Positions 10,401-47,476 are shown, numbered from the stretch's first letter. The stretch: 47,476 nucleotides of DNA from Thermoanaerobaculia bacterium (GCA_045807605.1 JBJMGZ010000658.1:1-47476); one strand, 5' to 3'. Numbers and translations are program-made. The notes: a model not told the origin generated them from the letters alone.

Positions 10401-13400
10401 CGCAGATGGGCCGCCAGCAGCACGCTCTTGAACGGCACGCCCGCGCCGTCCGCGAGCCGGCCGAGCGCCGCGGTCGTCCCGGCCGTCAGAGAGACGGGGG
10501 CCGACCGGATGCGCTGCTCCGGCACCGGCAGCCGTCCCGGCCACCGCGGCAGCTCCTGGAATTCCTGGCCCGCGAGCCGCCCGGACCAGTAGCGGCGGCT
10601 CTCCTCGGACGCGAGCGCCCGCCGCTCCAGCGCCACGAAGTCGCGGAACGCGACCGGGGGAGGAGGCGGCAGGGTCTCGTCGAAGTACAGCGCGAACAGG
10701 TCGGAGAGCAGCGAGGCGAAGCTCCAGCCGTCCACGATCGCGTGGTGCTCGGTGACCCCGAGCTCGCAGGTGTCGTCGGTCAGGAGGTGGGCCCAGAACC
10801 GGAGGAGAGGGGGGCGGCTCCAGTCGAAGCGCCGCGACCGCTCGGCTGCGAAGCGCTCCGCCGTCACCCGCTCCCGCTCCTCCGGCGGGAGCGCGCGGAG
10901 GTCCGCGAACTCCAGGGGGATCCGCGCCTCCCGGTGCACGAGCTGCAGGGGCTCGCCGTACCGCGCCCCGTCGAAGGAGGTCCGCAGCACGGCATGGCGC
11001 GCGGCGAGGCGCTCCAGGGCGCGGGAAAGCCCGGCGGGGTCGAGGGCGCCGCGCAGCGTGAAGCTGCTCACGTTGTGGTAGGGGATCGAGCCCGCGCCGC
11101 TCTCGCCGTGGAAGAGCATGCCGAGCTGGAGCAGCGAGAGCGGATAGGCGTCCTCCAGGCCCTCGGGCAGGCGCTCCCGGTCCGCGGGCGCAACCAGGGC
11201 GAACGGCTCGAGCGCCTCCGTCTCCTCGCCGTCGCGCCGCGCGGCCTGCGCCAGCTCTTCGAGCGTCTGGTAGCGGAAGAGATCCTGGAGCTCGAAGTGC
11301 AGGCCGCGCTCGGCCGCGAGCGAGCGCACCCGGATGCTGAGGATCGAGTCGCCGCCGAGCGCGAAGAAGTTGTCGCCGACCCCGACCTCGTCCAGCCCGA
11401 GGACGCGCGACCAGACCTCGGCGAGCGCCCGTTCCTCGGGTGTCCGCGGGAGGACGAGCTCCCCCGCCAGGGTGGAGCGCTCGCGCTCCGGGGCGGGCAG
11501 GGCGGCGCGGTCGATCTTGCCGTGGGCCGTCAGGGGGAGCGCCGCGAGCGGCACGAAGGCGGCCGGCAGCATGTGCTCGGGCAGCCGCCGGCGCAGGAAC
11601 GCGCGCAGCTCCTCGATCCCCGGCAGCGGCTCCGCTCCGGCCACGAGATAGGCGACCAGGCGCCGCTCCCCGCCCTCTTCGTCGCGATCCTTGCGGGCCA
11701 GCACCACCGCCTGCCGCACCGCCGGGTGCTCGCCCAGGGCGGTCTCGATCTCCCCCAGCTCGATGCGGAAGCCGCGGATCTTGACCTGATGGTCGATCCG
11801 CCCCAGGTACTCCAGGTCGCCGTTCGGCAGGTAGCGCGCGAGGTCGCCCGAGCGGTAGAGGCGCCCCCCTGGCTCGCGCCCGAACGGATCGGGCACGAAG
11901 CGCTGCGCGGTCAGCTCGGGCCGGCCGAGATAGCCCCGGGCCACCCCGGCCCCGCCGACGTACATCTCGCCGGCGACGCCGGTCGGCGCGGGCTCCTGGT
12001 TGCGGTCCAGGACCGCCAGGGAGAGGTCGGGCAGCGCCATGCCGATCATGCTCGCCGCGCTCAGGTCGGACGCGCCGACCGGGCGCCAGGTCACGTGCAC
12101 GGTCGTCTCGGTGATGCCGTACATGTTGACCAGCCGCGGCAGCCGGTCGCCATGGCGCTCGAACCAGGGCGCGAGGCTCTGGAGGTCGAGCGCCTCGCCG
12201 CCGAAGACCACGTAGCGCAGCGCGATCCCCTCCCCCCCCGCCCCGGCATCCGCCTCGATGAGCTGGCGGAAGGCCGACGGCGTCTGGTTGAGCACGGTCA
12301 CCCGCTCGCGCGCCAGCAGCTCGCGGAACGCCGACGGGGAGCGGCTCACGAAGTAGGGGACGACCACGAGCGTGCCGCCGTAGAGGAGGGCTCCCCAGAT
12401 CTCCCAGACCGAGAAGTCGAAGGCATGCGAGTGGAACAGGGTCCAGACGTCGTCCGGGCCGAAGTCGAAGAGCCCCTCGGTCGTGCTGAAGAGCCGCACC
12501 ACGTTGGCGTGGCTCACCCCCACGCCCTTCGGGCGCCCCGTCGATCCCGAGGTGTAGATGATGTAGGCCAGGTTGTCCGGATCGACAAGGACCGGCGCGG
12601 CGGCGTTCTCCTCGTCCAGGGGACCGTCGAGATCGACGACCGGGACATCGCACGCCGGGAGCCTCTCCCGCAGCGAGGACTGGGTGAGCAGCACCCGGAT
12701 CCCCGAGTCCGACAGCAGGTAGCGCAGCCGCTCCTCGGGGTAGGCGGGATCGAGGGGGACGTAGGCGCCACCGGCCTTCAGGATCGCGAGGATGCCCACG
12801 ACCATCGGAATCGAGCGCTCGACGCAGAGGCCCACCCGCGCCTCGGGGCCGGCACCGGCACGCCGCAGCCTCCGAGCCCAGCGTCCGGCGAGCGCGTCGA
12901 GCCCGGCATAGGTCAGCCGCTCGCCCTCGCAGACCACCGCGATCGCGTCCGGCGTGCGCGCCGCCTGCGCCTCGAAGAGCCGGTCGAGCGTGGTTTCGAC
13001 CGGGCGCCGGGCCGCGCCGGTGTTGCGCTCGGCGATCAGGTGGTGGCGCTCCTCCGGGGAGAGGATCGGCAGGCTCCAGATCCGCCGGTCGGGATCGGTG
13101 GCCACGCCGGCGAGAAAGCGTCCGAAGTGATCGAGGAAGCGGTCTGCCGTGGCGGCGTCGAACAGGTCGGTGCTGTACTCGAGCGTCCCTTCGAGGCTCG
13201 CCTCGCCCGCGGCGAGCACCAGGGTGAGATCGAACTTGGAGGAGCTGGTGGAGGTCGCGACCGGCTCGAGCGCCAGGTCCTCCAGGGGGGCCGCGGGCCG
13301 CGGTGCATTCCCGAGAGCCAGCATCACCTGGAAGAGCGGCGTGTGCGAGAGCGTGCGCTCGATCTTCAGCTCGTCGATCAGCTTTTCGAAGGGCAGGTCC

Positions 13401-14484
13401 TGGTTCGCCTGGTCGTCGAGCAGCGTCTCGCCCGTCCGCCGCAGCGCCTCGCGGAAGACCGGGTCCCCGGACAGGTCGGAGCGCATCACGAGCGTGTTGA
13501 CGAAGAACCCGATGAGCTCCTCGGTCTCGCGGTGGCGGCGCCCCGCCACGGGCGTGCCCACGCAGACGTCCTCCTGGCCCGAGCAGCGGCAGAGCAGCGC
13601 CTGGAAGGCGGTCAGCAGCGTGGCGAAGAGCGTGGTCCCCTCGCGGCGCGACAGCTCCTGCAGGCGCTGCGCGAGGTCGGCCGGGAAGAAGAACGGCCGG
13701 CTCGCGCCGCGCGGCGACTGGACCGCGGGCCGCGGCCGGTCCGCGGGCAGCGCGAGCAGGGGCGGAGCGCCCACGAGCCGGCGGTGCCAGTGGTCGACCT
13801 GGGCGGCGAGCACCTCGCCCTGGAGCCAGCGGCGCTGCCAGTCGGCGAAGTCCGCGTACTGGATCGGCAGCTCGGGAAGCGGCGAGGGCTGGCCGCGGTG
13901 GAACGCGCGGTAGAGCACGGCCAGCTCCCGCACCAGCAGGTTGCGCGACCACTCGTCGGAGACGATGTGATGGAGCGTGACCAGGAGCACGTGGCGCTCG
14001 GCCGCCAGGCGCAGCAGCGCCGCCCGGAAGACCGGCCCCTGCGCCAGGTGGAACGGCCGCCGCGCCTCCTCGGCCACCCGGCGATCCAGCTCCTCGGGCA
14101 GTGCGCCCAGGTCGATCACCGGCAGCGGCACGGCCGCGGCCGGGGCCACGGCCTGGACCGGCCCGTCGTCATCTTCCTCGAAAGTCGAGCGCAGCACCTC
14201 GTGGCGCCGCGCCACTTCCATCAGCGCCCGGGCGAGCGCCGCCACGTCGAGCCGGCCGTCGAGCCGCAGGGCCGCGGGCACGTTGTAGGCCGGGCTCGCC
14301 GGCTCCATCTGGTGCAGGAACCAGAGGCGCTGCTGCGAGAACGAGCATGGGAAGCGGTTTCCTGCTCCGCGCAGCGGGCTCGGGGCGATCGGCGGGATGC
14401 CGGAGCCCGAGCGCTCCCGGAGCTTCTGCTGGAGAAGCTTCTGCTTCGCCGGCGAGAGGCGGCCGATGCGGTCGAGGACCTCGC

Positions 14485-14488
<4 letters not shown>
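7424..14488 (-). CDS. NRPS-5, termination protein: C-A(Thr)-T-C(DCL/dual-type)-A(Asn)-T-TE, 2354 aa
   Basis: This is the real part of track ORF 7424..17452, beginning MSEVLDRIGRLSPAKQKLLQQKLRER (ATG 14486-14488, ATGA overlap with the NRPS-4 stop). Motifs found:
- SFSQQRLWFL and HHIVSDEWS
- YTSGSTGRPKG (twice)
- FFALGGDSILS
- YPLSLLQLGMLFH and HHAIVDGWS
- FFALGGHSLLA
- TE motifs GWSLGG and PGDHYS. Confidence 0.95.
7427..8116 (-). other. Type I thioesterase domain (chain release/cyclisation)
   Basis: PLFCIHPVGGSVFCY, nucleophile elbow GWSLGG and C-terminal PGDHYSLL, located at the extreme C-terminus of the last NRPS. Confidence 0.85.
8399..9826 (-). other. A domain of NRPS-5 module 2, predicted Asn (approximate boundaries)
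   Basis: The code is D L T K V G E V G K, read from GFDLTVT / LVKITPA / LVIGGE / NEYGPTETVVG. The published Asn code is DLTKLGEVGK (9 of 10 match). Confidence 0.75.
9869..11161 (-). other. C domain of the DCL/dual-E/C clade (approximate boundaries)
   Basis: The N-terminal motif EDAYPLSLLQLGMLFH differs from the S(F/Y)AQERLWFL motif of the other eight C domains. The active site HHAIVDGWS is intact. It is preceded by the only GGDSI-type carrier in the cluster. Confidence 0.6.
11474..12991 (-). other. A domain of NRPS-5 module 1, predicted Thr (approximate boundaries)
   Basis: The ten-residue code, read by alignment to GrsA positions 235-517, is D F W N V G M V H K. It comes from FDFSVWE / VLNQTPS / VVFGGE / NMYGITETTVH. 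The published Thr code is DFWNIGMVHK (9 of 10 match). Confidence 0.8.
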
Positions 14489-20943
<6,455 letters not shown>

Positions 20944-20950
20944 CGCCCGC

Positions 20951-23380
20951 TCATTCGTAGCGCAACGCGATCGTCGGCTCCACCTTGACCGCGCGCCGCG
21001 CCGGCAGGTACGTCGCGAGCGAGGCGACCGCGATGAAGACGAGGACCACCCCGGCGAAAGTGAACGGATCCCGTGCTGTGACGCCGAAGAGCTGGCTGGA
21101 CAGGAGGCGGGTCAGCACCAGGGCGCTGGCGACGCCCAGAACCAGGCCGCCGCACACCAGGGCCAGGCCGCGGCCCATCACCAGCCCGAGCACGCCGTTG
21201 CGATTCGCCCCCAGCGCCATGCGCAGCCCGATCTCCTGCGTCCTCTGCACCACGGAGTACGCCAGCATGCCGTAGAGGCCGAGCAGGGCGAGAAGCAGGG
21301 CGAGGAACGCGTAGAGCCCGACGATGGCCGCGTTCAGGCGCTGGCTCCGCTCCTGCTCCCGCATGCGCTCCTCGATGGTGCGGATGTCGTAGACCGGGAC
21401 CTGGGAGTCCACCTTGCGGACCGCGTCGCGGACGCTCTTGGTGACGCTCGCCGAATCGATGCTCGCGCGCACGATCAGGTTCGTGTCCGCGGTCGGCCGC
21501 TGCCCGAGCGAGAACAGGATGTGGTGGTTGCCCTCCACGAACCGGCCCTGGAAGCGGACGTTCGGGATGAGCCCCACGACGGTCACCGGCACGTCGGGCT
21601 CGCGGGTGGGCCGGACGAGCCGCTTGCCGATCGGGTCCTGGCCCGGCCACAGGACGTCGGCGAGCGACTTCGTGATCACCGCGACCCGCGGCCCCTCGTA
21701 GATGTCGTCCTGGGTGAACTCGCGGCCCTTGAGCAGCGGCACGCCGAGCACCTTGAGAGCGCCCGGGCTGACGCAGTGCAGGTCCGCCCGGATCGGCGCG
21801 GCCTCCGCCGGCGCGCCCTCGCGCGCGACCTCGGTGAACGTGGTCATGATGCCCGGCATCGCGGGTCCCCAGATCCCGGCCGCCTGCACGCCCGGGGCGC
21901 CGTCGAGGAGCCGGAGCAGCTCCTTCTGGGCCGCCGCCATCGCCGGCCGCTCCTCGTACCTCTCGGACTCGAAGCTCAGCCGCATGCTCAGCAGGCGGGC
22001 GGTCTCGAAGTCCACGCCCGTGGTCTGGAGCAGCCAGAAGCTGCGCAGCAGCAGCCCGGCCACGATGAGCAGGACCACGACGATGGCGACCTGGAAGACG
22101 ATCAGGCTGTTGCGGCCCCGGGACGAGTGGGTCCTGCCCCCGGCGGAGCGGATCTGCTGCAGCGTCCCCTTGGAATCCATGCGCGCGACGCTGAGCGCCG
22201 GCGGCAGGCCGAACAGCAGCCCGGTCAGCACCGTGCCCAGGATGGTGATGGCGAGAATCTGGCCGTCGAGCTCGATCTTGGTGAAGGGCGGCAGGTCGAG
22301 AAGGCCGACCATCAGCTTCGTGCCCCAGACCGCGAGCAGCGCCCCGAGCGCGCCGCCCAGGATGGCCAGGATCAGGCTCTCCGCGAGCACCTGCTGGATC
22401 AGCCGCCACCGGTTCGCTCCGAGAGCGAGCCGCAGGGAGAGGTCGCGCCGCCGCTCGGCCACCCGCACCAGCAGGAGGTTGGCGATGTTGGCGCAGCCGA
22501 TCAGCATGACGAGCCCCGCTCCGGCGAGCAGGATCTTCATCCCGGCCTCCATGTCCTCGAACATGAACTCGCGCAGCGGCAGCACCCGCGCGCCGTAGTC
22601 CTTGTTCGTATCGGGGTACTGGCGCTGCAGGTCGGTGGCGAACGCGTCGGCCTCCTGCTGGGCCTGCTCGACCGTCACCCCCGGCTTCAGGCGCGCCAGG
22701 GAGAACCAGAGACGCTCCTCGCGCGAGGTGAAGATCGGCGGCTCGTTGGGCAGGAACGAGGCTCCCGCCATGTTGGCCGGGATCCAGGCGTCGACCTCCC
22801 ACCGCCCCTGCGGGAAGTCGTAGAGCCCTTCCGGCATCACGCCGACCACCGTGTAGGGCTCGTTGTTGAGGACGATCTTCTGCCCGACGATCCCCGGATT
22901 CTTCTGCCAGAGACGCTGCCACAGGTGATGGCTGAGGATGATGAACGGCGCGCTTCCCGGGGGTCCGTCCTCCTGCGGCGTGAACAGGCGGCCCAGCCGC
23001 GGCTGGACGCCGAGCATCTTGAGATACGACGAGGGGACGTAGTTGACCCCGATCCTCTCGACGGAGTCTCCCTGCATGACGAGACGGTCCTGGTAGCAGA
23101 GGAAGGGCGACACGTCCTCCAGGAGCGCCGTCCTCCTGCGCCAGTCCTCCGACTCGAGCCAGGACAGGTCGGTGTCGGACGAGTTGGGCAGGTAGAACAT
23201 GCTGAGGACGACGAGGCGGTCCGCATCCTTGTAGGCCAGGTCCCGGAAGAGAACCGCCTTGGCGGCGCTGAACACGGATGCGCTGCCGCCGATGCAGAGC
23301 GCCAGGATCAGCAGCACCAGGACGCTGAAGCCCGGACGCAACGCGAGGGATCGTGCCGACTGCCGTACGAGGTTGGTCAT
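20951..23380 (-). CDS. Duplicated FtsX/MacB-type ABC permease without an ATPase domain ('ADOP', acidobacterial duplicated orphan permease family), 809 aa
   Basis: Track ORF 20951..23380. The protein contains two copies of the unit [N-terminal TM + large periplasmic domain + three-TM FtsX module]. The FtsX signatures are GCANIANLLLVRVAERRRDLSLRLALGANRWRL and LYGMLAYSVVQRTQEIGLRMALGANRNGV. The C-terminus LPARRAVKVEPTIALRYE is typical of the family. A strong GGAGGA Shine-Dalgarno sequence at 23385-23390 lies 4 nt before the ATG. Confidence 0.85.
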   Translation of the reverse strand: MTNLVRQSARSLALRPGFSVLVLLILALCIGGSASVFSAAKAVLFRDLAYKDADRLVVLSMFYLPNSSDTDLSWLESEDWRRRTALLEDVSPFLCYQDRLVMQGDSVERIGVNYVPSSYLKMLGVQPRLGRLFTPQEDGPPGSAPFIILSHHLWQRLWQKNPGIVGQKIVLNNEPYTVVGVMPEGLYDFPQGRWEVDAWIPANMAGASFLPNEPPIFTSREERLWFSLARLKPGVTVEQAQQEADAFATDLQRQYPDTNKDYGARVLPLREFMFEDMEAGMKILLAGAGLVMLIGCANIANLLLVRVAERRRDLSLRLALGANRWRLIQQVLAESLILAILGGALGALLAVWGTKLMVGLLDLPPFTKIELDGQILAITILGTVLTGLLFGLPPALSVARMDSKGTLQQIRSAGGRTHSSRGRNSLIVFQVAIVVVLLIVAGLLLRSFWLLQTTGVDFETARLLSMRLSFESERYEERPAMAAAQKELLRLLDGAPGVQAAGIWGPAMPGIMTTFTEVAREGAPAEAAPIRADLHCVSPGALKVLGVPLLKGREFTQDDIYEGPRVAVITKSLADVLWPGQDPIGKRLVRPTREPDVPVTVVGLIPNVRFQGRFVEGNHHILFSLGQRPTADTNLIVRASIDSASVTKSVRDAVRKVDSQVPVYDIRTIEERMREQERSQRLNAAIVGLYAFLALLLALLGLYGMLAYSVVQRTQEIGLRMALGANRNGVLGLVMGRGLALVCGGLVLGVASALVLTRLLSSQLFGVTARDPFTFAGVVLVFIAVASLATYLPARRAVKVEPTIALRYE

Positions 23381-23392
23381 TGGGTCCTCCGT

Positions 23393-26300
23393 CTATTTTC
23401 TCAATCGCTGTTTCAGAAGCGCGAGTTTCTTGTCCGAAAGCCTGGATCGCCGGGCCGCCACCTGGTCCTGGAGAGCCGCGGACCTCTCCTGCGCAACCGC
23501 CCGGCTCCCCTCCTCCTCCGCGTCCTCGTACACCGCCGGATCGGTCAGCCACAAGGTGCCGTCCGCACCCGCGCCAGGCAGGCCGGAGAGCCGCTGCGCA
23601 GGGTCGGCCGCCACGCCGCGGAGCACCTGTTCGAAGTGCGCGAGCAACCGCTCCGCGGTCGTGCGTTCGTAAAGGCCGGCATCATACTCTACCCAGACGA
23701 GAAGGTCTCCGGATTCCACGACAAAGCTCACCGAGAGGTCATAAGGCGCCCGCTTGGCCGAGCGGCCGAGATCGAAGGTCTCCACCGCGACTCCCGGCAG
23801 CCGCAGCGGCGGGATGGAGACGTTCTGGAACACCACCATCACCTGGAAGATCGAGCTCCGCCCCGCCTGCCGGTCGGGACGGCTGCGCTCCACCACCTTC
23901 TCGAACGGCGCATCCTGGTGGGAGTAGGCCTGCAAGGCGGACCTGCGCACCTCGACCAGGAGCTCGCGGAACGTCCAGCCGGGATCGACCGCCGCGCGCA
24001 GGGGCAGCACGTTGGCGAAGAACCCGATCAGGTCCTCGGCCGCCGGATGCGCCCGGTTGGCGTGCATCGTGCCCACCACGACCCGCTCCTGGCCGGTGTA
24101 CCTGTGGATCAGCAGCGCCAGCGCGGCCAGCAGGGTCATGAAGAGCGTGGCGCCCTGCTCCCGCCCCAGCCTCACGAGCGGCTCCAGGACCTCTCCAGGA
24201 ATGGTGCTCCGGACCGCCTCGAGCGCTCCTCCGGCCCGCGAGGCCGGCCGGTCCCGCGGCAGGAGCGCCGGTCCCTCCCCCCCGAGCCGGCCCGCCCAGT
24301 AGGCGAGCTGCTCTTCCAGCAGGTCCCCCTGCAGCCAGCGGCGCTGCCAGGCTCCGAAGTCCGCGTACTGGATGGGCAGGTCCGGCAGGGGCGAGGGCCG
24401 CGCGGCGCAGAAGGCCTCGTAGAGGACCGTCACCTCGCGGATGAGGACACCCAGCGACCAGCCGTCGCAGGCGATGTGATGGATGGTCAGGCAGAAGGCG
24501 TGGTCGTCCTGCGCGAGCTTCACGAGGGCCGCCCGCAGGAGCGGCCCGCGGGCGAGGTCGAACGGCGCGGACTGGAGAGCCTGGATGGCCTGCCGCGCCG
24601 TCTCCTGCCGGTCCGCGGCGGGCAGGCCGGAGAGGTCGGCCACGGCCAGGAGCCGCCGGGGAGGCGCGTCGATCACCTGGAGAGGGCGGCCGTCGGCCAC
24701 GATCCGCGTCCGCAGCACCTCGTGCCGCCGGCAGATCTCCACGAGAGTCGCGTCGAGCGCTTCCAAGGAGAGCCGGCCGCGCAGGCGGAAGGCATAGCCC
24801 AGGTTGAAGGCATTGCTGCCGGGCTCCAGCTGGTCGTAGAGCCAGAGCCTCTCCTGGGCGTACGAGACCGGCAGCGGCCCGCCGCGCGGCACCCGCTCCA
24901 GAGGGGGCAGCTCCCGGGCTCCGGAGCGCGTCTCGACGGCGGCGGCGAGCCGGGCGGGCGTGGGATGCTCGAAGAGCAGGCCGGGAGGCAGCTCGACGCC
25001 GAGCGCCTCCCGCAGGCGGGCCGTCACCTGGCCGGCCAGGAGAGACTGTCCGCCCAGGGCGAAGAAGTCATCGTCGGGGCCGATCGCGCCGGTCTCCAGG
25101 AGGTCCGCCCAGATCCCGAGCACGATCTCCTCGGTGGGCGTGCGCCCGGCCGGAGCGCTCGCCGGCTCCTCCGCCCGGACCTCGGGCAGCGCGCGGCGAT
25201 CCACCTTGTTGTTCGGCGTGAGCGGCAGCGCGTCCAGAAGCGCGAACGCGGCCGGCCGCATGTAGTCCGGCAGGCGGCCGGCGAGGAGCTTCTGGATCTC
25301 GGAGAGATCGATCGGCTCCCGCGGCACCAGGTAGGCCACCAGCCGCTTCTCCCCGGACTTCGCGGCCGCGGCCACCACGACGGCGTCCTTCACCCCCGGA
25401 TGCTCCAGGAGCACCGACTCGATCTCGCCGAGCTCGATGCGGAAGCCGCGGATCTTGACTTGATGGTCCGACCGTCCCAGAAAATCGAGCTGCCCGTCTT
25501 CGGTGACGCGGGCCAGGTCGCCGGTGCGGTAGAGGCGCGCCCCGGCTCCGGACGGGCTCGGGACGAACCGCTCGGCCGTGAGATCGGGCCGGCCGAGGTA
25601 GCCGCGGGCGAGCCCCGCGCCGCCGATGTAGAGGTCTCCGGGCGTCTCCGCCGGAACCGGCCGCAGGTTCTCGTCGAGCACGAGGAGGTCGGTCGCCGCG
25701 ATCGGGCCTCCGATCGGGACCGGCCCGTCCCCGGGCTCGACCCGCGCGACGGCCGACCAGATCGTGGTCTCGGTCGGGCCGTAGAGGTTCCAGAGCTCGG
25801 CCCCGCTCTCCAGGAGCTGGCGCGCGAGCTCGCGGGGCAGCGCCTCGCCGCCGCAGAGCATGCGCAGCCGGGGGCTCCCCTTCCACCCGGATTGCAGGAG
25901 GAGCTTCCAGGTGACGGGCGTGGCCTGCAGCGCGGTCGCGCCGCTCGCCTCCAGGAGCCGGGCCAGGCGCGCGCCGTCCATCGCCGTCTCCCGGGACGCC
26001 ACGACCACGCGGCCGCCCGCGACGAGCGGCAGGAAGATCTCCAGCCCGGCGATGTCGAAGGAGAGCGTGGTGACCGCCACCAGCACATCGGTCTCGCGGA
26101 ACCCGGGCCGCTCCCGCATCGAGAGCAGGAAGTTGGCGAGCGCGCCGTGCGTGACCTGCACCCCCTTGGGCCGGCCCGTGGAGCCCGAGGTGTAGATCAC
26201 GTACGCAAGATTTTCCGGCAGGGCGCGGACCTCGGGGCACGAATCGTCCGTTCCGTCCAGCCCCTCCTCCAGCGGATCGGTCAGGACCACCTTCAGGCCC

Positions 26301-26590
26301 GAGTCGCGGACCATGAGCTCGAGCCGGTCCGCGGGGAAGCCCGGATCGAGAGGCACGTAGGCGCCGCCGGCCTTGTGGATCCCCAGCATGGCCACGACCA
26401 TCTCGATGCCGCGCCGGAGGCGCAGCCCCACGAGGACCTCGGGTCCGACGCCCAGCCCGATGAGCCGGTGCGCCAGGCGGTTGGCGCGCCGGTCGAGCTC
26501 GCCGTAGGTGAGCTCCCGGCCCTCGAACACGAGGGCGGCCCGGTCCGGAGCGCGCCGCGCGCGCTCCTCGAAGAGCTCGCGCACCGTCAT
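23393..26590 (-). CDS. NRPS-3: A(Gly)-T-C plus a basic C-terminal helix, 1065 aa (permuted module)
   Basis: This is the real part of track ORF 23393..27265, beginning MTVRELFEERARRAPDRAALVFEGRELTYGELD, that is, directly at A-domain core A1 (ATG 26588-26590, ATGA overlap with the NRPS-2 stop). Motifs found:
- YTSGSTGRPKG
- FFALGGQSLL
- VSYAQERLWLY
- HHIACDGWS
- tail ...AARRSRLSDKKLALLKQRLRK followed by the stop. Confidence 0.9.
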   Translation of the reverse strand: MTVRELFEERARRAPDRAALVFEGRELTYGELDRRANRLAHRLIGLGVGPEVLVGLRLRRGIEMVVAMLGIHKAGGAYVPLDPGFPADRLELMVRDSGLKVVLTDPLEEGLDGTDDSCPEVRALPENLAYVIYTSGSTGRPKGVQVTHGALANFLLSMRERPGFRETDVLVAVTTLSFDIAGLEIFLPLVAGGRVVVASRETAMDGARLARLLEASGATALQATPVTWKLLLQSGWKGSPRLRMLCGGEALPRELARQLLESGAELWNLYGPTETTIWSAVARVEPGDGPVPIGGPIAATDLLVLDENLRPVPAETPGDLYIGGAGLARGYLGRPDLTAERFVPSPSGAGARLYRTGDLARVTEDGQLDFLGRSDHQVKIRGFRIELGEIESVLLEHPGVKDAVVVAAAAKSGEKRLVAYLVPREPIDLSEIQKLLAGRLPDYMRPAAFALLDALPLTPNNKVDRRALPEVRAEEPASAPAGRTPTEEIVLGIWADLLETGAIGPDDDFFALGGQSLLAGQVTARLREALGVELPPGLLFEHPTPARLAAAVETRSGARELPPLERVPRGGPLPVSYAQERLWLYDQLEPGSNAFNLGYAFRLRGRLSLEALDATLVEICRRHEVLRTRIVADGRPLQVIDAPPRRLLAVADLSGLPAADRQETARQAIQALQSAPFDLARGPLLRAALVKLAQDDHAFCLTIHHIACDGWSLGVLIREVTVLYEAFCAARPSPLPDLPIQYADFGAWQRRWLQGDLLEEQLAYWAGRLGGEGPALLPRDRPASRAGGALEAVRSTIPGEVLEPLVRLGREQGATLFMTLLAALALLIHRYTGQERVVVGTMHANRAHPAAEDLIGFFANVLPLRAAVDPGWTFRELLVEVRRSALQAYSHQDAPFEKVVERSRPDRQAGRSSIFQVMVVFQNVSIPPLRLPGVAVETFDLGRSAKRAPYDLSVSFVVESGDLLVWVEYDAGLYERTTAERLLAHFEQVLRGVAADPAQRLSGLPGAGADGTLWLTDPAVYEDAEEEGSRAVAQERSAALQDQVAARRSRLSDKKLALLKQRLRK
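25181..26590 (-). other. A domain of NRPS-3, predicted Gly (approximate boundaries)
   Basis: The code is D I L Q L G L I W K, read from SFDIAGLE / TALQATPV / MLCGGE / NLYGPTETTIW. It is identical to the published Gly code DILQLGLIWK. Confidence 0.85.
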
Positions 26591-29500
26591 GGGGCCATGG
26601 CTCCGGACGCGGGCTCGAGCAGCGAGTCGACCTCGTCCTCGCTGAGGCTCTCGATCTGCTCGATCATGCGGTCCTCGATCACTCCCGACAGCTCCGCGAC
26701 CGTCGGGGCCTCGAACAGCGCGCGCAGCGCCAGCTCCACGCCGAAGGTCTCGCGCAGCCGCCAGGTCGCCTGCGTGGCCAGCAGCGAGTGCCCTCCGAGC
26801 TCGAAGAAGTTGTCGAACACCCCCACCCGCTCCACGCCGACGACCTGGGTGAAGATCTCCGCGACGGCGGCCTCGATCTCGGTGCGGGGAGCGACGTAGG
26901 GCCGGTCCTGGCCCCCCTCCCCTCCCACCTCCGGCAGGGCGCGCCGGTCCACCTTGCCGCTGGTGTTGAGCGGCAGGCGCTCCAGCTCCACCCAGGCCGA
27001 CGGCACCGCGTAGTCGGGGAGCCGGCTCTGCAGGAACTGGCGAAGGTCCTGGACCGTGGCCTCGCCGGGGGTCCGGATCACCACGTAGGCCACCAGCCGC
27101 TGCGCGCCCGAGGGCTCGGGCCGGGCCAGGACCACGACCCCCGCGATCGCGGGGTGCTCGCTGAGCACGGCCTCGATCTCGCCCAGCTCCAGGCGGAAGC
27201 CGCGGATCTTCACCTGGTGGTCGATCCGCCCGAGGAACTCCAGGTTGCCGTCGGCGCGCAGGCATGCCAGGTCGCCGGTGCGGTACAGGCGGGCGCCGGG
27301 CAGGACCGAGCAGGGGTCGGGCACGAACACGGCCGCGGTCTTCGCGGGATCGAACAGGTAGCCGCGGCCCACGCCGCCGCCGCCCACGCAGAGCTCGCCC
27401 GTCACCTCCAGGGGCACGGGGTCGAGCCAGGGGCTCATCACGTAGAGCTGCGTGTTGAGGACCGGCCTGCCGATCGGGATCGAGCGCGCCTGCGCGGCTT
27501 CCTCAATGGTGACCCGGTGGTGGCTGATGTCGTCCGAGCACTCGGTGGGGCCGTAGGCGTTGAGCAGCGCGGCCCCCGGATAGGCCCGGTGCCACTCGCG
27601 GCAGAGCTCCGGCGGCAGCGCCTCGCCGGTCGGAATCAGCCAGCGCAGCGCCGCGAGCCCGGGTCCGGCGCCCGCGCCGCGGCGGCGGATCTCCTCCAGC
27701 ATGAGCCGCATCAGCGACGGCACGGTCTCGAGCACCGTGACCCCGTCCGCCTCCACCCGGTCGAAGAGCACGGCCGGATCGTGCGCGACCGCGTCGCGGT
27801 AGATCTCGACCCGCCCGCCGGTGGCCAGCGGCGCCAGGAACTGCCAGACCGAGATGTCGAAGCACTGCGACGCGGTCTGCGCCACCACGTCGGCGCCGGT
27901 CAGCGCGAGGTCCTCGATCTTGGCGAACAGGTGGTTGATCATGCCTCCGTGCACGACCATGGCGCCCTTGGGCACCCCGGTCGAGCCCGAGGTGAAGATC
28001 ACGTAGGCGAGGTTCGCGGAGCCGCTGCGGGCCGGCGGCGCCTCCGCCAGCTCGCCGTCCGCCAGGGTCTCCAGGTCGAGCAGCCCGGCCTCCGTCCCCG
28101 CTTCCTCGGCGAGAGGCCGGAGGGCCTGCGAGGCCAGCACCCATCGGCTGCGGCTCTGCTCGAGCACCTGGCGGATGCGGCCGGCGGGGTGATGGGGGTC
28201 GAGCGGCAGGTACGCCCCGCCGGCCTTGAACACCCCGAGCATCGCGACCAGGAAGTCCAGCCCGCGCTCGGCCAGGAGGGCGACCAGGCCCTCGGCATCT
28301 ACGCCGTGCTGGATCAGGCTCGCGGCGAGCCGGTTGGCCCGCCGGTCGAGCTGGGCGTAGGTCAGGCTCTCCCCGTCGCAGGCCGCGGCCACGCGGTCCG
28401 GGTGCTGCGCCGCGAGCCCCTCGAAGAGCTGCTGGAACGCCTGCCCCCGCGGGAAGCTCCCGGCACGGTCGTTCCATTCGCCGAGGAGCTGCGCCCGCGA
28501 AGTCTCCGAGAGGACCGGCAGCGAGGCCACGTCGCGCCCAGGGGACTCCGCCATGCAGCCGAGCAGCGCCTGGAAGTGCTCCAGGAAGCGGGCGATGAAC
28601 GGCGCGTCGAACAGGCTCGTGCTGAAGTGGAGCGCGCCTTCGAGCCCCGTGCCGTCCTCGGTCATCTCCAGGAACAGCTCGAACCGGGTCGTGCCGGTCT
28701 CGACGTCCATGCGGCTGAGGCTCAGGCCGGGCAGCTCGATGCGCTCCAGCGGCGCGTTCTGGAGCGCGAACATGACCTGGAAGAGCGCCGAGCGCTCCAG
28801 GTCCCGATCGGGGTTGATCTCGGCGACCAGCCGCTCGAACGGCACGTCCTGATGGCCGAAGGCGTCGAGCGCCACCCGCCGCACCCGCCGCAGCAGCTCC
28901 TCCACGTCCGGCGTGCCCGAGAGGTCCGCGCGCACGACCAGCGTATTGACGAAGAACCCGATCAGGCGCTCGAGCTCGGTCCGGCCGCGGCCGGCCACCG
29001 GCACGCCGACCGGAATGTCGGAGGCGCCGCTGTAGCGCTGGAGCAGCGCGGCGAAGCCTCCGAGGAGCGTCATGAAGAGCGTCGTCCCGCTCTGCCGGCT
29101 GAGCACCCGGAGCCGGGCGGCCAGGGTGTCCGGCACGCGGAACCACCTCGTCCCGCCCTGCCACGGATCGCCGTCGTTCTGCGCGCGCCGCCGCGGCAGG
29201 TCGAGGGCCGCGGGCGCATCCGCGAGCCGCTCCTTCCAGAAAGCGAGCTGCCGTTCAAGAACCTCGCCCTGGAGCGCGTCGCGCTGCCAGCACGCGAAAT
29301 CCGTGTACTGCACGGGCAGCTCCGGCAGGAGCGGGGGCCGGCCCGCCGCGATCGCCGTGTACAGGGCGGAGACCTCGGACAGGAGCACGCCCATGGACCA
29401 GGCGTCGGACACGATGTGGTGCAGGTTCAGGAGCAGCACGTGCTCTCGCGGAGAGCGCCGCACCAGCAGGGCGCGAATCAGCGGCCCCCTTTCGAGGCTG

Positions 29501-32500
29501 AAGGGGAGGCGCCCGTCGAGCACCGCGAGGCGGACCGTCTCCCGCTCGCGCGCGGCCTCCGGCAGGGCGCTCAGGTCGATCAGGCGGAGCTCGATGGGCA
29601 GGCGCTCGTGCACGATCTGCCGGGGCTGCCCCTCGACAGAAGTGAAGGTGGTGCGGAGCGTGGCATGCCGGCGCACGATCTCGTCGAGGATCGCCGCGAA
29701 GACGGCGGGCTCGGCGATCCCTTCCAGCAGCGTGACGCTGGGCAGGTTGTAGGCCGGGCTGCCGGGCTCGAACTGGTCGAGGAACCAGAGCCGCTCCTGG
29801 GCGAACGAGAGGGGGAGCGCCTCGCCGGCGGCAGCCGTTCGGATCGGGATGGCGGCGAGCTCGGAGGTCGTCCCCAGCGCCGCGTCGACGCGCGCGGCGA
29901 GCCCCGCCAGGGTGGGCGCCTCGAACAGCTCGCGCAGGGGGAGGTCGATGCCCATCGACGCGCGCAGGCGGGAGAGGACCTGGATGGCGAGGAGCGAGTG
30001 GCCGCCGAGGTCGAAGAAGCTGTCCTCGACGCCGACCTGCTCGCGCTTCAGGAGCTCCTGCCAGATCTCCGCGAGCTGCCGCTCCGTGCGCGTGCGGGGC
30101 GGCGTGCCGGCAGTCCCCTCCTGCCCCGCCTCGGGCGCGGGCAGCGCCTTGTAGTCGATCTTGCCGTTGGGCGAGAGCGGCAGCCGGTCGAGGAAGACGA
30201 AGACCGAGGGCACCATGTAGTCCGGCAGGAGCTCGCCGAGCCAGGCGCGCAGCCGCGCCGGCAGGCCCTCGCGCTCCTCGCCGGCAGCGACCACGTATCC
30301 CACGAGGCGCGCCGAGGCCGCGGAGCCGCCGTCGCGGCGCACCGCCACCACGGCCTGGCCCACCTCCTCGTGCTTGCGCAGCACGGCCTCGATCTCGCCG
30401 ATCTCGATGCGGAAGCCCCGCACCTTGACCTGATGGTCCAGCCGGCCCAGGAAGTCGACCCGGCCGTCGGGCAGGTAGCGGGCGAAGTCGCCGGTGCGGT
30501 AGAACCGCGAGCCCGCATCGCCCGACAGGGCGTCGGGCACGAAGGACGCGGCCGTGCGCGCCGGATCGGCGAGATACCCGCGCCCCACGCAGACGCCGCC
30601 CACGCAGAGCTCCCCGGGCACGCCGATGGGCGCCGGCTGGAGCCGCGGATCGACGATGTAGAGCCGGGCGTTGCGCAGCGGCCGGCCGACCGGCGTGATC
30701 CCGCTCCCCGCCTCCCGACCCTCGGAGATGGCGAGGGTGCTCACGTCGTCCGAGCACTCCGAGGGGCCGTACAGGTTGAGCAGCGGCACGTGCGGATAGA
30801 CCGAGAGCCAGCGCCGGCAGAGGTCGGAGGGCACGGCCTCGCCGGTCGGCATCACCCACCGCAGCCGGGCCAGGGGAGGGCGCGCAGCCCCGAGCCGGTC
30901 GGCCTCGTCGAGGAGCGCCTGAAGCAGCGAGGGCACGATCTCGAGGACCGTGATGCCGCCCGCCTCGATCTCCTGCAGCAGGGTCCAGGGGTCGTGGGCG
31001 ACCTTGTCCGGCACGATGCGCACCGTGCCGCCGGCCGCGAGCACCGCCAGGAACTGCCAGACCGAGATGTCGAAGCACTGCGACGCGGTCTGCGCCACCA
31101 CGTCGCGGTCGTCGAGCGGCAGGTCTTCCACCTTGGACCGGACGTTGTTCACCAGTCCTTTCACCTCGACCATGACCCCCTTGGGCGTGCCGGTCGAGCC
31201 CGAGGTGAAGATCACGTAGGCGAGGTTCCCGGGCTCCCCGTAGGGAGGAGCGCCTGCGTCCGGCTCCCCGGCGAGCACCTCCTCCAGCACCTCGAACCGG
31301 GGCGGCGCCGCCAGGATCTCGACCGCGGCCCGCATGCGAGCCGCATGGTCCTGGGAAGCCAGGGCGAAGGCGGCGCCGGAGCTCTCCAGGATCTGCCCGA
31401 TCCGCCGCTCGGGATGGGCAGGGTCGAGCGGCAGGTACGCGGCTCCGCATCGCAAAATGGAAAGAATGGCGGTCAGGAACGGGATGCCGCGATCCGCCAG
31501 AACGGGCACGATCGCGTCCCTGCCCACGCCGCGGGCCGCCAGGACCCGGGCCATCCGGTCCACCCGCTCGGCGAGCTCGCCGTAGGAGACCCGCTCCTCG
31601 GCGCAGGAGGACGCGCAGGCGGCCGGCCGCAGGGCGGCCTGCTCCTCGAACATCTCGGAGAGCGTGCCGAGCCGCGAGCTCGACGGCCGGGCCGTGTCGT
31701 TCCATTCGAGCAGCAGGTGCTGGCGCTCGGCGGCTGCGAGGAGCGGCGCCTGGAGAAGCCCGCGGTCCGGGTCCTCCACCAGGTTCAGGAGCAGCGCCTC
31801 GAAGTGGGCGAGCAGGCGCCCCACCGTCGTCCGGTCGAAGAGGTCGACGTCGTAGTCCAGGTCTCCGGCGAGCCCGTCGCCGCGCTCCTCCAGGTAGAAC
31901 AGGAGGTCGTAGTTCACGACGTCGCGCTCGATCTCCCTGGCCGCGATGCGCAGGTCGCCCAGCTCGAGCGCGGCCGAGGGGGTGTTCTGGAGGATGAGCA
32001 TCACCTGGAAGAGCGGCGTCAGGCTCAGGTGCCGCTCCGGGTTGAGCTCCTCGACCAGCTTCTCGAACGGCATGTCCTGGTGGGCGTAGACGCCGAGCGT
32101 CACGTCGCGGACGCGCGCGAGGGCCTGGCGGAAGCTCATCCCCTCGTGCAGGCGGGCGCGCAGCACGAGGGTGTTGATGAAGAACCCGATCAGGTTCTCG
32201 ACCTCGCGGCGATGGCGGTTGGCGATCACCGTGCCGGTGGTCAGGTCGGGCTGGCCGGAGTAGCGCCAGAGCAGCGTGTACCAGGCGGTGAGGAGCGACA
32301 TGAAGAGCGTGCTCCCCGTCTTCTGCCCGAGCGCCCGCAGCCGCGCCGTGACCGAATCGGAGAGCGCGAAGCCCGCCCGCGCGCCCCGATACTGCTGCAC
32401 CGGCGGCCGCGGCCGGTCGAGCGGCAGGTCGAGGGAGTCGGGGGCGCCGGCGAGCTGCCCCTTCCAGAACTCCAGCTCGCTTGCCAGGACCTCCCCCTGC

Positions 32501-35500
32501 AGCCAGCCCCTCTGCCAGGCCGCGTAATCCGGGAACTGGATCGGCAGCTCCGGCAGGCCGGGCCGGCGGCCGGCGGCGAACGCCTCGTAGGCCGCGCTCA
32601 TCTCCCGGGTCAGGACCCAGAGCGACCACCCGTCGGAGACGATGTGATGCAGGGTGAGCACGGCCAAGTGCTCCGTGGGGGAGAGGCGCAGGAGCGTCGC
32701 CCGCAGCAGCGGCCCGGTCCGCAGATCGAAGGGCTTGCGGGCCTCCTCGTCCACGAGCCGCTCCTGCTCGGCCCGGCGCCGCGACGGGGGCAGGGCCGAG
32801 ACGTCCACCACCGGGAACGGACACGGCGCGAACGGATCGATGACCTGCAGCGGCTCGCCGTCGACGTCCAGGAAGCGGGAGCGCAGGGTCTCGTGGCGGC
32901 GCACGATCTCGTTGAGCCCCGCTTCGAGCGCCGCGACGTCGAGCCGGCCCTCCAGGCGCACGGCCGTCGCGAGGTTGAAAACGGCACTGCCGGGCTCCCA
33001 GCGGTCGAAGAACCAGACCCGCTGCTGGGAGAACGACAGGGGGATCCTCCCCTCCCGCGGCACCGGGCGCAGCGGCGGGATCTGGCGGTCGGCTCCGAGC
33101 TCGCGGCTGCGCTCGACCTCCGCGGCGAGGAGGAGGACCGTCGGCAGCTCGAAGAGCCGGCGCAGCGGCAGGTCCACGCCGCAGACCTCGCGCAGGCGCG
33201 ACGCCACGCGCGCCGTGGACAGGGAGTGCCCGCCGAGGTCGAAGAAGCTGTCCTCGACGCCGATCCGCGAGATCCCCAGGACGTCGGACCAGATCCCGGC
33301 GATCAGCTGCTCCATGGGCGTGCGCGGCGGCGGCGAGGCGGCCGCTCCCGCGCCGGCCAGGTCGGGCGCCGGCAGCGCCGTCCGGTCGATCTTGCCGTGC
33401 GCGGTCAGCGGGATCGCGTCGAGGGTCACGAACGCCGCCGGCACCATGTGCTCGGGCAGGCGCTTGCGCAGATGGGCGCGCAGCTCCTCCGCCGACGGCG
33501 GCTCCGCCTGCGCGGGCACCAGGTAGGCGACCAGCCGCGGCTCGCCGGCCGGGCCGGGAAGGGCCAGGACGAGGGGCTGGCGGACCCCGGGATGCTCCGC
33601 CAGCGCGGCCTCGATCTCGCCCAGCTCGATGCGGAAGCCGCGGATCTTGACCTGGTGGTCGATGCGGCCCTGGTAGTCGAGATCGCCGCCCGGCAGCCGG
33701 CGGGCCAGGTCGCCCGAGCGGTAGAGACGCGCCCCCGGCACGCCTCCGAACGGATCGGGCAGGAAGCGCTGGGCCGTCAGGTCGGGCTGCCCGAGATAGC
33801 CGCGGGCGGCGCCGGCGCCGCCCACCCAGATCTCCCCGGGAACGCCGCGCGGCACGGGCTGGAAGCTGCGGTCCAGCAGGTAGAGGCTCAAGTCCGGCAG
33901 GGGCGCGCCGATGGCGCTCGCCGCACGGCCGCTCAGGACGTCCTCCGAGAGCAACCGGCGCCAGGTCACGTGCACGGTGGTCTCGGTGATGCCATACATG
34001 TTGACCAGCCGCGGCCGCTCGTCGCCGTAGCGCTCCATCCAGGGCCGCAGGCTGCGCGGGTCCAGCGCCTCGCCGCCGAAGATCACCCAGCGCAGCGCCA
34101 GCTCCCCTCCGGCCTCGCGGTCGGCCTCCATGAGCTGGAGGAAGGCCGAGGGGGTCTGGTTGAGCACCGTGACCCGCTCGCGGACCAGCAGCTCGTGGAA
34201 CGCCGACGGCGAGCGGCTCACCCAGTAGGGGACCACCACGAGCGTGCCGCCGTAGGCGAGCGCTCCCCAGATCTCCCAGACCGAGAAGTCGAACGCGTGG
34301 GAGTGGAACAGCGTCCAGACGTCCCCGGGGCCGAAGTCGAACAGGCCCTCGGTCGACCGCAGGAGACGGACGACGTTGGCGTGGGTCACGCCCACGCCCT
34401 TGGGCTTGCCCGTGGAGCCCGAGGTGTAGATGACGTAGGCCAGACTGGCGGGTCCCGCGGCTTCCGGCGCCGGACCGGGCTCGTCGCCGAAGGAGCCGTC
34501 GAGGTCGAGCACCGCGAGCACCGCGGCGGCGCAGCCGGGCAGCCGGTCGCGCAGGGCGCTCTGGGTGAGCAGGACCCGGATGCCGGAGTCCTCGAGCAGG
34601 AAGCGCAGCCGGCTCTCGGGATAGGCGGGGTCGAGAGGCACGTACGCGCCGCCCGCCTCCAGGATGCCGAGGATCCCCACGACCATGTCCACGGAGCGCT
34701 CCACGCAGAGGCCGACCCGCACCTCGGGTCCGACGCCCAGGCCGCAGAGCCGCCGGGCCAGCCGCCCCGCCCGGTTGCGCAGCTCGCCGTAGGCGACGCT
34801 CTCGCCGCCGCAGACCACGGCCGCCGCATCCGGCCGCTGCTCCGCCTGCCTGGCGAACAGCTCGTGCAGGCAGGCGTCGACCGGCAGCTCCGCGGGCGGG
34901 GCTTCGCAGAGTAGCTGGCGCCGCTCCTCCGGATCGAGCAGCGGCAGCTCCGACAGCCGGCTGCGCAGAGCGGCGGAACCGACCCCCTGGAGCAGCGACT
35001 GGAGATGGCCGGCCATGCGCGCGGCGGTGGCCGGATCGAAGAGCTCGGAGTCGTACTCCAGCCAGCCCGCCAGGAGCCCGCCGAGCTCGTGGAGGCTCAG
35101 ATTCAGATCGAACTTCGAGGTCCCGATGTCCAGCCGCTCGCGGCGCAGGGAAAGGCCGGGCAGGTCGACGGAGTCCGGGATCGCGTTCTGGAAGGCGAGC
35201 GTCACCTGGACGAGCGGGTTGTAGCTCGGGTTGCGCTCGACCTGGAGCGCCTGGACCAGGCGGTCGAACGGCAGGTCCTGGTGGGCCAGCGCCTCCAGCG
35301 TCACCCTGCGGACCGCGGACAGCAGCTCCGCCAGCGCCGGATCCCCCGGCAGGTCCACCCGCAGCGCCAGCGTGTTGACGAAGAAGCCGACGAGCCCCTC
35401 GATCTCCGTGCGGTTGCGGCCCGCGACCGGCATGCCCACGACCACGTCGTCCGCGCCCGAGTAGCAGCGCAGGAGGACCTGCCAGGCCGCCAGGAGCAGC

Positions 35501-36379: not shown

Positions 36380-39742
<3,363 letters not shown>

Positions 39743-47419: not shown

Positions 47420-47476
47420 CTCGGGTTCTCCCTGGAGGACCGGGAGCCCTCCTTGCGGCCGAGCCCGAGCGCGCGG

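Follow-up and report, generated by a model that had tools for sequence, protein, structure and literature searches.

A glycine-loading A-T-C synthetase subunit with a leader-like C-terminal helix in a Thermoanaerobaculia lipopeptide operon

The docking elements described for nonribosomal peptide synthetases (NRPSs) are N-terminal helices that precede a condensation (C) domain, or C-terminal tails that follow a carrier (T) or epimerization (E) domain. The Bode laboratory has reportedly built exchange units composed of adenylation (A), T and C domains, as well as split type S synthetases joined by synthetic zippers. The VioO/VioM pair of viomycin biosynthesis combines an A-T protein with a C-type enzyme that acylates a peptide amino group. 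In the docking pair formed by the C-terminal docking domain (CDD) of PaxA T1 and the N-terminal docking domain (NDD) of PaxB, a short turn, a kink proline and a helix with a basic face and an LL face meet a carrier that ends in a long acidic helix and a short tail (Watzel et al. 2021, PMC8251938); PaxB/PaxC docking is of the three-helix type (review PMC9113145). The A-T didomains SyrB1 and Alb04 act in trans as stand-alone modules (review PMC8949500). In a fuscachelin construct, PCP2-C3-SpyCatcher combined with SpyTag-PCP3 (PCP, peptidyl carrier protein), untethered carriers gave no product, and an acceptor PCP tethered at the C terminus of the C domain was needed (Izore et al. 2021, PMC8097023). 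Here we analyze a 47,476-nt stretch of DNA (GCA_045807605.1 JBJMGZ010000658.1:1-47476; hereafter, the window) from a metagenome-assembled genome (MAG) of an uncultured soil acidobacterium of the Thermoanaerobaculia. It carries a lipopeptide operon of FAAL, polyketide synthase (PKS) and NRPS genes, whose third window NRPS, NRPS-3 (23393-26590), has the domain order A-T-C and ends in a helix resembling the N-terminal leaders of its neighbors.

NRPS-3 is a free-standing glycine A-T-C subunit, encoded by a separate gene that, like the permease gene kept beside it, lies in the interior of the operon. The relevant genes all lie on the minus strand and are tightly packed. The limits given for NRPS-3 in a preliminary description of this locus are correct: the stop codon occupies 23393-23395, the ATG at 26590 forms an overlapping ATGA with the stop codon TGA of NRPS-2 ((C-A-T)x3, 26587-36369), and the NCBI gene call for the MAG yields the same 1065-aa protein (P0001). 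Pfam assigns AMP-binding to residues 7-332, AMP-binding_C to 389-462, PP-binding to 489-552 and Condensation to 573-1002. This anatomy bears out the account given earlier, in which the protein has no N-terminal C domain (the AMP-binding match starts at residue 7) and ends with a complete one containing HHIACDGWS, behind which 66 residues follow. Likewise, NRPS-2 does end in a T domain plus an acidic tail, and NRPS-4 ((C-A-T)x2, 14485-20943) does begin with a leader and a C domain. Between NRPS-3 and NRPS-4 lies a gene that went unmentioned in that description, encoding an ADOP-family duplicated permease (20951-23380; TIGR03434, 798 bits). It starts 12 nt after NRPS-3 and ends 7 nt before NRPS-4, is kept in all orthologous clusters and is duplicated in one of them (L005); no ATPase partner was seen near it.

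The A domain of NRPS-3 spans residues 1-470 (25181-26590). Read by hand and then by alignment, its specificity code is DILQLGLIWK, an exact glycine code. A glycine-type code is present in all 12 full-length family members, namely the window protein and eleven orthologues, and the orthologues read DILQ[LF]G[LVF][IV]WK; the exception is the variant at locus L008, with DALWLGGTFK. We take these Stachelhaus codes to mean glycine (DILQLGLIWK) and valine (DALWLGGTFK). The carrier (residues 486-555, 24926-25135) has the core GGQSL, and this core is indeed unusual, with Gln in only three of the 12 members (the window protein and two orthologues) and GGHSL in the other nine; the Ser is kept in all. The C domain (residues 573-1002, 23585-24874) has the C1 motif SYAQERLWL. 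Both this motif and HHIACDGWS are kept in all orthologues and fit the LCL motifs SxAQxRLW and HHxxxDG. Comparison with solved C domains placed it closest to Txo2 (4e-88), followed by Txo1, TycC PCP-C and fuscachelin PCP-C, with far weaker matches to the CDA starter C domain (2.5e-16), the EpoB Cy domain (3e-12) and EntF. Its identity to the remaining LCL domains of the cluster is 39-43%; those domains share 42-53% among themselves. By these comparisons the C domain of NRPS-3 is an intact, LCL-like elongation domain, not one of the release or starter type.

Behind the C domain, alignment revealed a degenerate remnant of a C-A linker (LSGLPGAGADGTLWLTD, 23540-23590; LPRLDEAER..RPDGTLWLTDP in orthologues), followed by a variable acidic linker (residues 1018-1031, 23498-23539; pLDDT <50) and a 35-residue tail that ends in the helix LSDKKLALLKQRLRK. 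By alignment, AlphaFold2 and profile search, the tail contains a helix A (VAQERSAALQDQVAARRS, 23444-23497) that is specific to the NRPS-3 family and a helix B (RLSDKKLALLKQRLRK, 23396-23443), a leader-like, basic amphipathic helix that is the presumed docking element. In the AlphaFold2 model of full-length NRPS-3 the domains are well modelled, and the tail forms helices at residues 1026-1049 and 1053-1064 behind a disordered stretch; a Foldseek search with this model gave no discrimination between states.

The tail is kept in all 12 full-length family members, in the L008 variant and in fragments found later. The ending ..QDQVAARRSxLSxKxLALLxQRLxK is common to the eleven full-length orthologues, which are 1089-1141 aa long and show 61-83% identity. 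Mean column identity among orthologues is 0.72 for helix B, compared with 0.74 for the A domain, 0.73 for the T domain, 0.65 for the C domain and 0.17 for the adjacent linker. Judged by these values, the tail is under selection and as conserved as the catalytic domains. A profile of 43 tail residues searched against 1.84 billion representative proteins retrieved five clusters only, in all of which the match was C-terminal and the protein belonged to the NRPS-3 family, and the tail was found in only one GTDB species representative. On this sampling, the tail-bearing A-T-C protein is limited to a narrow Thermoanaerobaculia family. We also observed that the last codons of NRPS-3 (23393-23440) are AT-rich (CTT, AAA, CGA, TTG, AGA, AAA) in a genome of ~73% G+C, and that this end directly precedes the GGAGGA ribosome-binding site of the permease gene; it may keep the permease start unstructured.

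We then compared the tail with the leaders. NRPS-1 (C-A-T, 36380-39742), NRPS-2, NRPS-4 and NRPS-5 ((C-A-T)x2 with a terminal thioesterase (TE) domain, 7424-14488) begin with leaders of the form M..(R)I..LSPxxxxLLxxRL, located at 39665-39742, 36292-36369, 20866-20943 and 14411-14488, respectively. A leader profile was built from 16 N-terminal leaders of the cluster and its orthologues, with zero tails included. In a six-frame translation of the window, this profile scored the NRPS-3 tail at 10.8 bits (11.2 on the protein), and the next match reached 5.2. The tail ranks fifth, right after the four leaders; among them it resembles mainly the leader of NRPS-4 (MTEPSGRIAALSPKRRALLAQRLRAE). Between LSPKRRALLAQRLRA of that leader and LSDKKLALLKQRLRK of the tail, 10/15 residues are identical; L, LL and L are spaced alike in the two, and the tail helix has a basic and a hydrophobic face. 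Run against 210,465 residues of NRPS proteins, the profile picked up every one of the 12 family tails, together with leaders at the N termini of unrelated synthetases and a single site inside P0099; all other scores stayed at or below 2.4 bits. The similarity also exceeds what composition would give: when the tail was shuffled with its composition preserved, 2-4 of 5000 shuffles reached the observed score with the full profile, and 5-14 of 5000 did so when the profile contained only the four window leaders. A recent copy of the NRPS-4 5' end was considered as the source of the tail and ruled out, with 24/45 nucleotides identical and differing codon usage.

The leaders occur only on proteins that follow an acidic-tailed carrier. 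NRPS-1, NRPS-2, NRPS-4 and the PKS all end in a carrier with an acidic helical tail; in NRPS-2, the last carrier with its long acidic helix and short tail (..VIEDRMIEQIESLSEDEVDSLLEP.., 26590-26796) is the one to which the NRPS-3 tail and the NRPS-4 leader are both presumed to bind, and the end ..PTVAELSGVIEDRMIEQIESLSEDEVDSLLEP.. is conserved in orthologues. According to the leader profile, the leader motif is likewise N-terminal in unrelated NRPSs. In two natural fusions, P0099 (residues 1330-1400) and L065, a T domain, an acidic helix, a leader-like segment (LDGLSPERRLLLQRRL) and the next C domain follow one another in one chain, an arrangement that suggests fused docking pairs. Single-sequence AlphaFold2 of the P0099 fusion gave helices only, including one of 30 residues at the acidic-helix site, without reliable packing. 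By resemblance rather than membership, the leaders are likely docking elements of the PaxA/PaxB kind. Covariation of tail, leader and acidic tail across orthologues showed too little variation to use, and a literature search for the leader motif and the A-domain code strings returned nothing useful. Carriers with similar acidic tails (..IARLEAMSEEEAQRILEPP..) were also seen in L010-L056 and other metagenome loci, where the next gene very often is not a synthetase starting with a C domain; there we found genes for a cytochrome P450, a 3-hydroxyacyl-CoA-dehydrogenase-like protein or TauD.

Gene order around NRPS-3 is conserved. Eight loci (L001-L006, L008, L009) share an NRPS ending in T and ..IEDRIIEQIESLSEDEVDSLLEP.., the A-T-C-tail protein, one or two ADOP permease genes and an NRPS beginning with leader and C domain. 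Given this conservation, the A-T-C-tail architecture is a family trait, not an accident of assembly. On some contigs a single protein of 4389 or 4328 aa replaces NRPS-1 and NRPS-2, and a single larger protein replaces NRPS-4 and NRPS-5. Because of these fusions, the acidic tail of NRPS-2 is the only free partner left for both the NRPS-4 leader and the NRPS-3 tail.

The preliminary description regarded NRPS-3 as a circularly permuted C-A-T module whose leader helix had stayed attached to the C domain, and the anatomy does not bear this out. Permuting leader-C-A-T should give A-T-leader-C, whereas NRPS-3 reads A-T-C-leader. In NRPS-3, 60 residues separate the T core from the C1 motif and contain no leader; ordinary T-C junctions elsewhere in the cluster have 62-63. 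The A-T-C part aligns colinearly with A-T-C stretches located inside ordinary multimodular NRPSs (94% coverage, 40-52% identity). Nearly all members keep a decayed C-A linker behind the C domain (LPRLDEAERxxxLRPDGTLWLTDP, compared with the ordinary LPLLSEAERRQLLxEWNDT), and P0042 and L008 keep a C-A linker before the A domain (LLLQEWNDT and VVVEWNDT). Remnants at both ends are expected from an excised internal A-T-C, not from a single opened junction. NRPS-3 therefore looks like an internal A-T-C unit cut from a multimodular synthetase at two C-A linkers. The variant L008 (1405-4943)/P0124 joins a Val-like A domain (DALWLGGTFK) and a full N-terminal C-A linker to the same T-C-tail, and it lies behind the same NRPS-2-type acidic tail.

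Taken together, these comparisons suggest how NRPS-3 might act. We consider it reasonably probable, by analogy with the Pax system, that tail helix B attaches NRPS-3 to the final carrier of NRPS-2, with glycine addition at the NRPS-2/NRPS-4 junction. Helix B, as an element of the PaxB-NDD kind, would imitate the NRPS-4 leader and bind the long acidic helix and short tail behind that carrier, which would bring the glycine unit to the junction for the addition of one Gly. A more tentative part of the proposal concerns direction: the Gly-loaded carrier of NRPS-3 itself may be the donor at its C domain, and the docked NRPS-2 carrier the acceptor. The latter would be held on the C-terminal side of the C domain, in the usual acceptor position, and would supply the nucleophile, most simply an amino group of a diaminobutyrate-type residue on NRPS-2's last carrier. 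The chain would stay on NRPS-2 and then pass to NRPS-4 by normal leader/tail docking. The ordinary length of the T-C linker (60 residues against 62-63) and the C-A linker remnant after the C domain are the grounds for assigning the donor role to the protein's own carrier. This topology copies the normal arrangement, with the donor N-terminal of the C domain and the acceptor at its C-terminal side, and a Val-like A domain on the same T-C-tail (L008/P0124) is easier to tolerate at a donor site. We slightly prefer it to the reverse and intertwined topologies discussed below. As a whole, an excised Gly A-T-C unit docked by a leader-like tail and using its own carrier as donor is the best explanation we have for these sequences, although we rate the complete combination at somewhat under an even chance.

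The nature of the nucleophile was approached through the A-domain codes of NRPS-2. The third module of PvdL (A3) loads L-2,4-diaminobutyrate (Dab). Modules 2 and 3 of NRPS-2 carry the codes DIWEMTLDDK and DIWEITADDK, both of which match DIWELTADD, read from solved PvdL A3 (9UP2/9LCQ); the code of module 3 differs from that of PvdL-E2-C3-A3-PCP3 by a single conservative change. These matches suggest a pair of adjacent Dab-type residues from NRPS-2 modules 2 and 3. Across orthologues DIWE[IL]TADD is near-invariant, whereas the first residue of NRPS-4 varies among Ser, Pro, Thr and Asp. An aspartate kinase encoded in the cluster (45189-46853) may supply the Dab precursor. Glutamate on the last carrier of NRPS-2 was also considered and set aside, as the title of the PvdL-E2-C3-A3-PCP3 entry identifies the third module and the code points to Dab.

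Several points weigh against this proposal. The NRPS-4 leader needs the same acidic tail, so there would be either competition or a ternary complex, and Gly could be skippable either way. Acylation of the side-chain amine of a carrier-bound residue by an LCL-type domain would be unusual, and the Dab assignment comes from the likeness of the code to that of PvdL A3, a Dab-loading domain. A profile made without NRPS-4-type leaders gives the window tail 3.3 bits, a score reached by 175-425 of 5000 shuffles, and the likeness is therefore chiefly to the leader of NRPS-4. The kink position is Asp or Glu, not Pro, in 10 of the 12 tails (LSD in the window; LSP in two of the 12), whereas the leaders have LSP or LDP. 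Finally, searching the leader profile against PDB sequences gave chance helical matches only and no docking domain.

The main alternative is the reverse arrangement put forward in the preliminary description. In this model the tail docks NRPS-2's last carrier into the donor site of the NRPS-3 C domain, the Gly loaded on the preceding carrier of NRPS-3 itself acts as acceptor, and the resulting peptidyl-Gly carrier serves the first C domain of NRPS-4, making Gly the backbone residue 5 of the nonapeptide part encoded in the window. In its boldest form this is a functionally permuted module, in which a C domain uses the preceding carrier of the same chain as acceptor. In its favor, simple chemistry in the order of the genes would suffice, both the donor residue (DIWE[IL]TADD) and the acceptor Gly are near-invariant while the first residue of NRPS-4 varies, and leaders of the kind that the tail resembles deliver donor carriers. 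Crystals of fuscachelin PCP2-C3 (7KVW) show that an upstream-type PCP can sit in the acceptor site of a C domain, yet in that structure the site belongs to a neighboring molecule and not to the PCP's own C domain. The T-C linker of NRPS-3 is moreover of the ordinary donor type, the linker remnants flanking the unit speak against an origin by permutation, and the chain would end on an internal carrier without an acidic tail although the NRPS-4 leader still matches the tail of NRPS-2. We consider this arrangement unlikely. The domain count had been offered in its favor, nine C domains being taken as exactly right for a colinear nonapeptide. Nine C domains are indeed present in the window; the whole line, however, has ten C and ten A domains plus a PKS. 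The count is in any case poor evidence, because every other module is a complete C-A-T and any A-T-C protein would keep the numbers of C and A domains equal.

It is improbable, in our assessment, that the tail is no docking element at all and instead an anchor that fixes NRPS-3 to the membrane or the neighboring ADOP permease, a contact for some other partner, or a relic. The permease gene is always directly next, the helix is strongly basic and amphipathic, and the unusually AT-rich last codons lie just ahead of the permease ribosome-binding site, all of which would suit such a role. A relic is excluded by the level of conservation, however, and the hydrophobic positions and the LSxKxxALLxQRL pattern match the leaders of cytoplasmic synthetases beyond composition; the leaders, for their part, evidently go with acidic-tailed carriers.

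An intertwined in-line route, in which NRPS-3 acts as a unit slotted in trans between the C1 and A1 domains of NRPS-4, strikes us as quite improbable. NRPS-4 C1 would move the NRPS-2 chain to Gly on the NRPS-3 carrier, and the C domain of NRPS-3 would then use its own carrier as donor and the first carrier of NRPS-4 as acceptor. All donor relations would be canonical, and the remnants of C-A linkers that flank NRPS-3 on either side would be accounted for; in addition, the NRPS-4 leader and C1 are orthologous in five clusters (61-73% identity), and the A domain behind them varies between Ser, Pro and Thr (44-50%). Against it, C1 would face cis competition from the carrier of NRPS-4 itself, acceptors would have to be reached in trans at both steps, a ternary assembly on one acidic tail is required, and L001 and L003 have another type of first C domain in NRPS-4, yet NRPS-3 and its tail are unchanged. 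The least credible alternative, which we deem very improbable, is a non-condensing scaffold with an interface-type C domain, as in C-A(Gly)-T-C proteins beside TauD genes: 10 of 28 non-orthologous alignment matches have ~370-780 residues before A-T-C and end 34-51 residues after the C domain, eight of these ten with a Gly code, and one contig read out for P0045 (NDD-C-A(Gly)-T-C) continues with a TauD gene and a C-starting NRPS in the same two-C-in-a-row pattern, but there is no TauD-type hydroxylase gene in the window or 10 kb upstream, the tails are unrelated, the C domain of NRPS-3 is 38-46% identical to those domains compared with 35-45% to ordinary elongation C domains, its active-site motif is intact in all members, and the Gly module would have no C domain at all.

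The wider gene layout places NRPS-3 within a longer line. The window is part of a 72,988-bp contig (JBJMGY010000159.1), and domains were assigned by Pfam, except for the permease, which was assigned by TIGR03434. At the upstream end of the window lie an FkbM methyltransferase gene (46469-47419), the aspartate kinase gene and a PKS gene (KS-AT-KR-DH-ACP, 39743-45205) that precedes NRPS-1. Beyond window position 47476, upstream of the PKS, a 2411-aa FAAL-ACP-C-A-MT-T protein is encoded (L089, 549-7784), with a luciferase-like oxygenase insert in its A domain and an FkbM-type methyltransferase domain; it ends in a basic tail, not an acidic one. This protein is the true start of the assembly line, and the cluster is cut there by the window edge. 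The full line would then consist of a lipid starter, one amino acid, one PKS extension and the nine window modules, in all of which the core motif set is complete; the window holds nine C and nine A domains. NRPS-3 as a loader of the PKS was considered and is ruled out by the FAAL protein. The PKS has the unusual order KR before DH, lacks an ER domain, and stands between an NRPS-type loading protein upstream and NRPS-1.

Two other C domains of the line deviate from the common pattern. The second C domain of NRPS-5 (9838-11188, residues ~1100-1550) is only 26-30% identical to the other eight, starts with YPLSLLQLGMLFH, has the active site EHHAIVDGWSF and follows a Thr module with the carrier core GGDSI; it is of a different subtype (DCL-like or modifying), and the same type is found again in L004 and L006. 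In the first C domain of NRPS-4, the motif reads HHIAADLWS (residues 177-185, 20400-20420 region), with Leu in place of the motif Gly; this Leu recurs in L002, L004 and L006 (Ala in L005), independent of the A domain that follows. On the 3' side of NRPS-5 come an MFS transporter gene and then two PQQ-like beta-propeller genes with a short AMP-binding fragment (2277-5947 and 1189-2280); a PQQ-propeller gene is present on the upstream flank of the cluster as well (L089, L090).

The broader claim, that an N-type docking helix moved behind a C domain lets an A-T-C unit plug into an existing carrier-to-condensation junction, is one we regard as rather unlikely. If true, a leader-type helix behind the C domain of a natural A-T-C unit would make docking helices position-independent, and nature would insert a module in trans at an already complete junction, as engineers attempt with exchange units and synthetic zippers. 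Our literature search found no description of a leader-type helix C-terminal to a C domain. The locus also offers a small, defined system, made up of a 1065-aa protein, an acidic tail and a competing leader, for studying how a C domain tells its donor carrier from its acceptor carrier. Colinear prediction is unsafe for genome mining in this cluster family, in which Gly may be a backbone, side-chain or optional residue.

Among described systems, PaxA/PaxB offers a close likeness for the docking elements. The cluster's four leaders and acidic tails share with it the short basic helix, the L-x-P kink, the LL face and the long acidic T helix. The NDD there comprises ~35 residues of helical propensity N-terminal to the C domain, and the four leaders fit this description, whereas the NRPS-3 helix is C-terminal, behind the C domain. 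In most NRPS-3 tails, furthermore, the kink Pro is replaced by Asp or Glu, and NRPS-3 has an extra, family-specific first helix. Like the engineered exchange units, NRPS-3 begins and ends at C-A linkers, comprises exactly A-T-C and carries a helical attachment device at its end; in those designs, however, the next unit is A-first, whereas NRPS-3 is natural, with a T-ending protein upstream and a C-starting one downstream.

With SyrB1, Alb04 and VioO/VioM, NRPS-3 has in common that a separately encoded amino-acid-loading unit serves the main line. The main line of SyrB1 and Alb04 contains an A-less or dead module, whereas the nine window modules are complete, and a leader-like helix at the C terminus has been described for none of these units. 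The C-A(Gly)-T-C proteins associated with TauD (P0045, L088) resemble NRPS-3 in having a Gly carrier, an extra C domain, a short tail and a C-first synthetase next in line; they differ in keeping their own N-terminal C domain, in a tail that continues into or mimics a TauD linker, and in an adjacent hydroxylase gene. They belong to a widespread group (P0010, P0031, P0045, P0087, P0091, P0096-P0098, P0029) with a Gly-code A-T-C and ~370-710 extra N-terminal residues, whose members end 34-51 residues past the C domain; in P0029 the C domain continues into TauD (328 residues). The C domain of this group may be an interface type for hydroxylating carrier-bound Gly. The fuscachelin construct shares with the topology proposed for NRPS-3 the layout of a donor carrier, a C domain and a C-terminal tether that holds the acceptor carrier; its tether is artificial and covalent, and its acceptor carrier is attached through the N terminus, whereas NRPS-2 would be held by its C-terminal tail.

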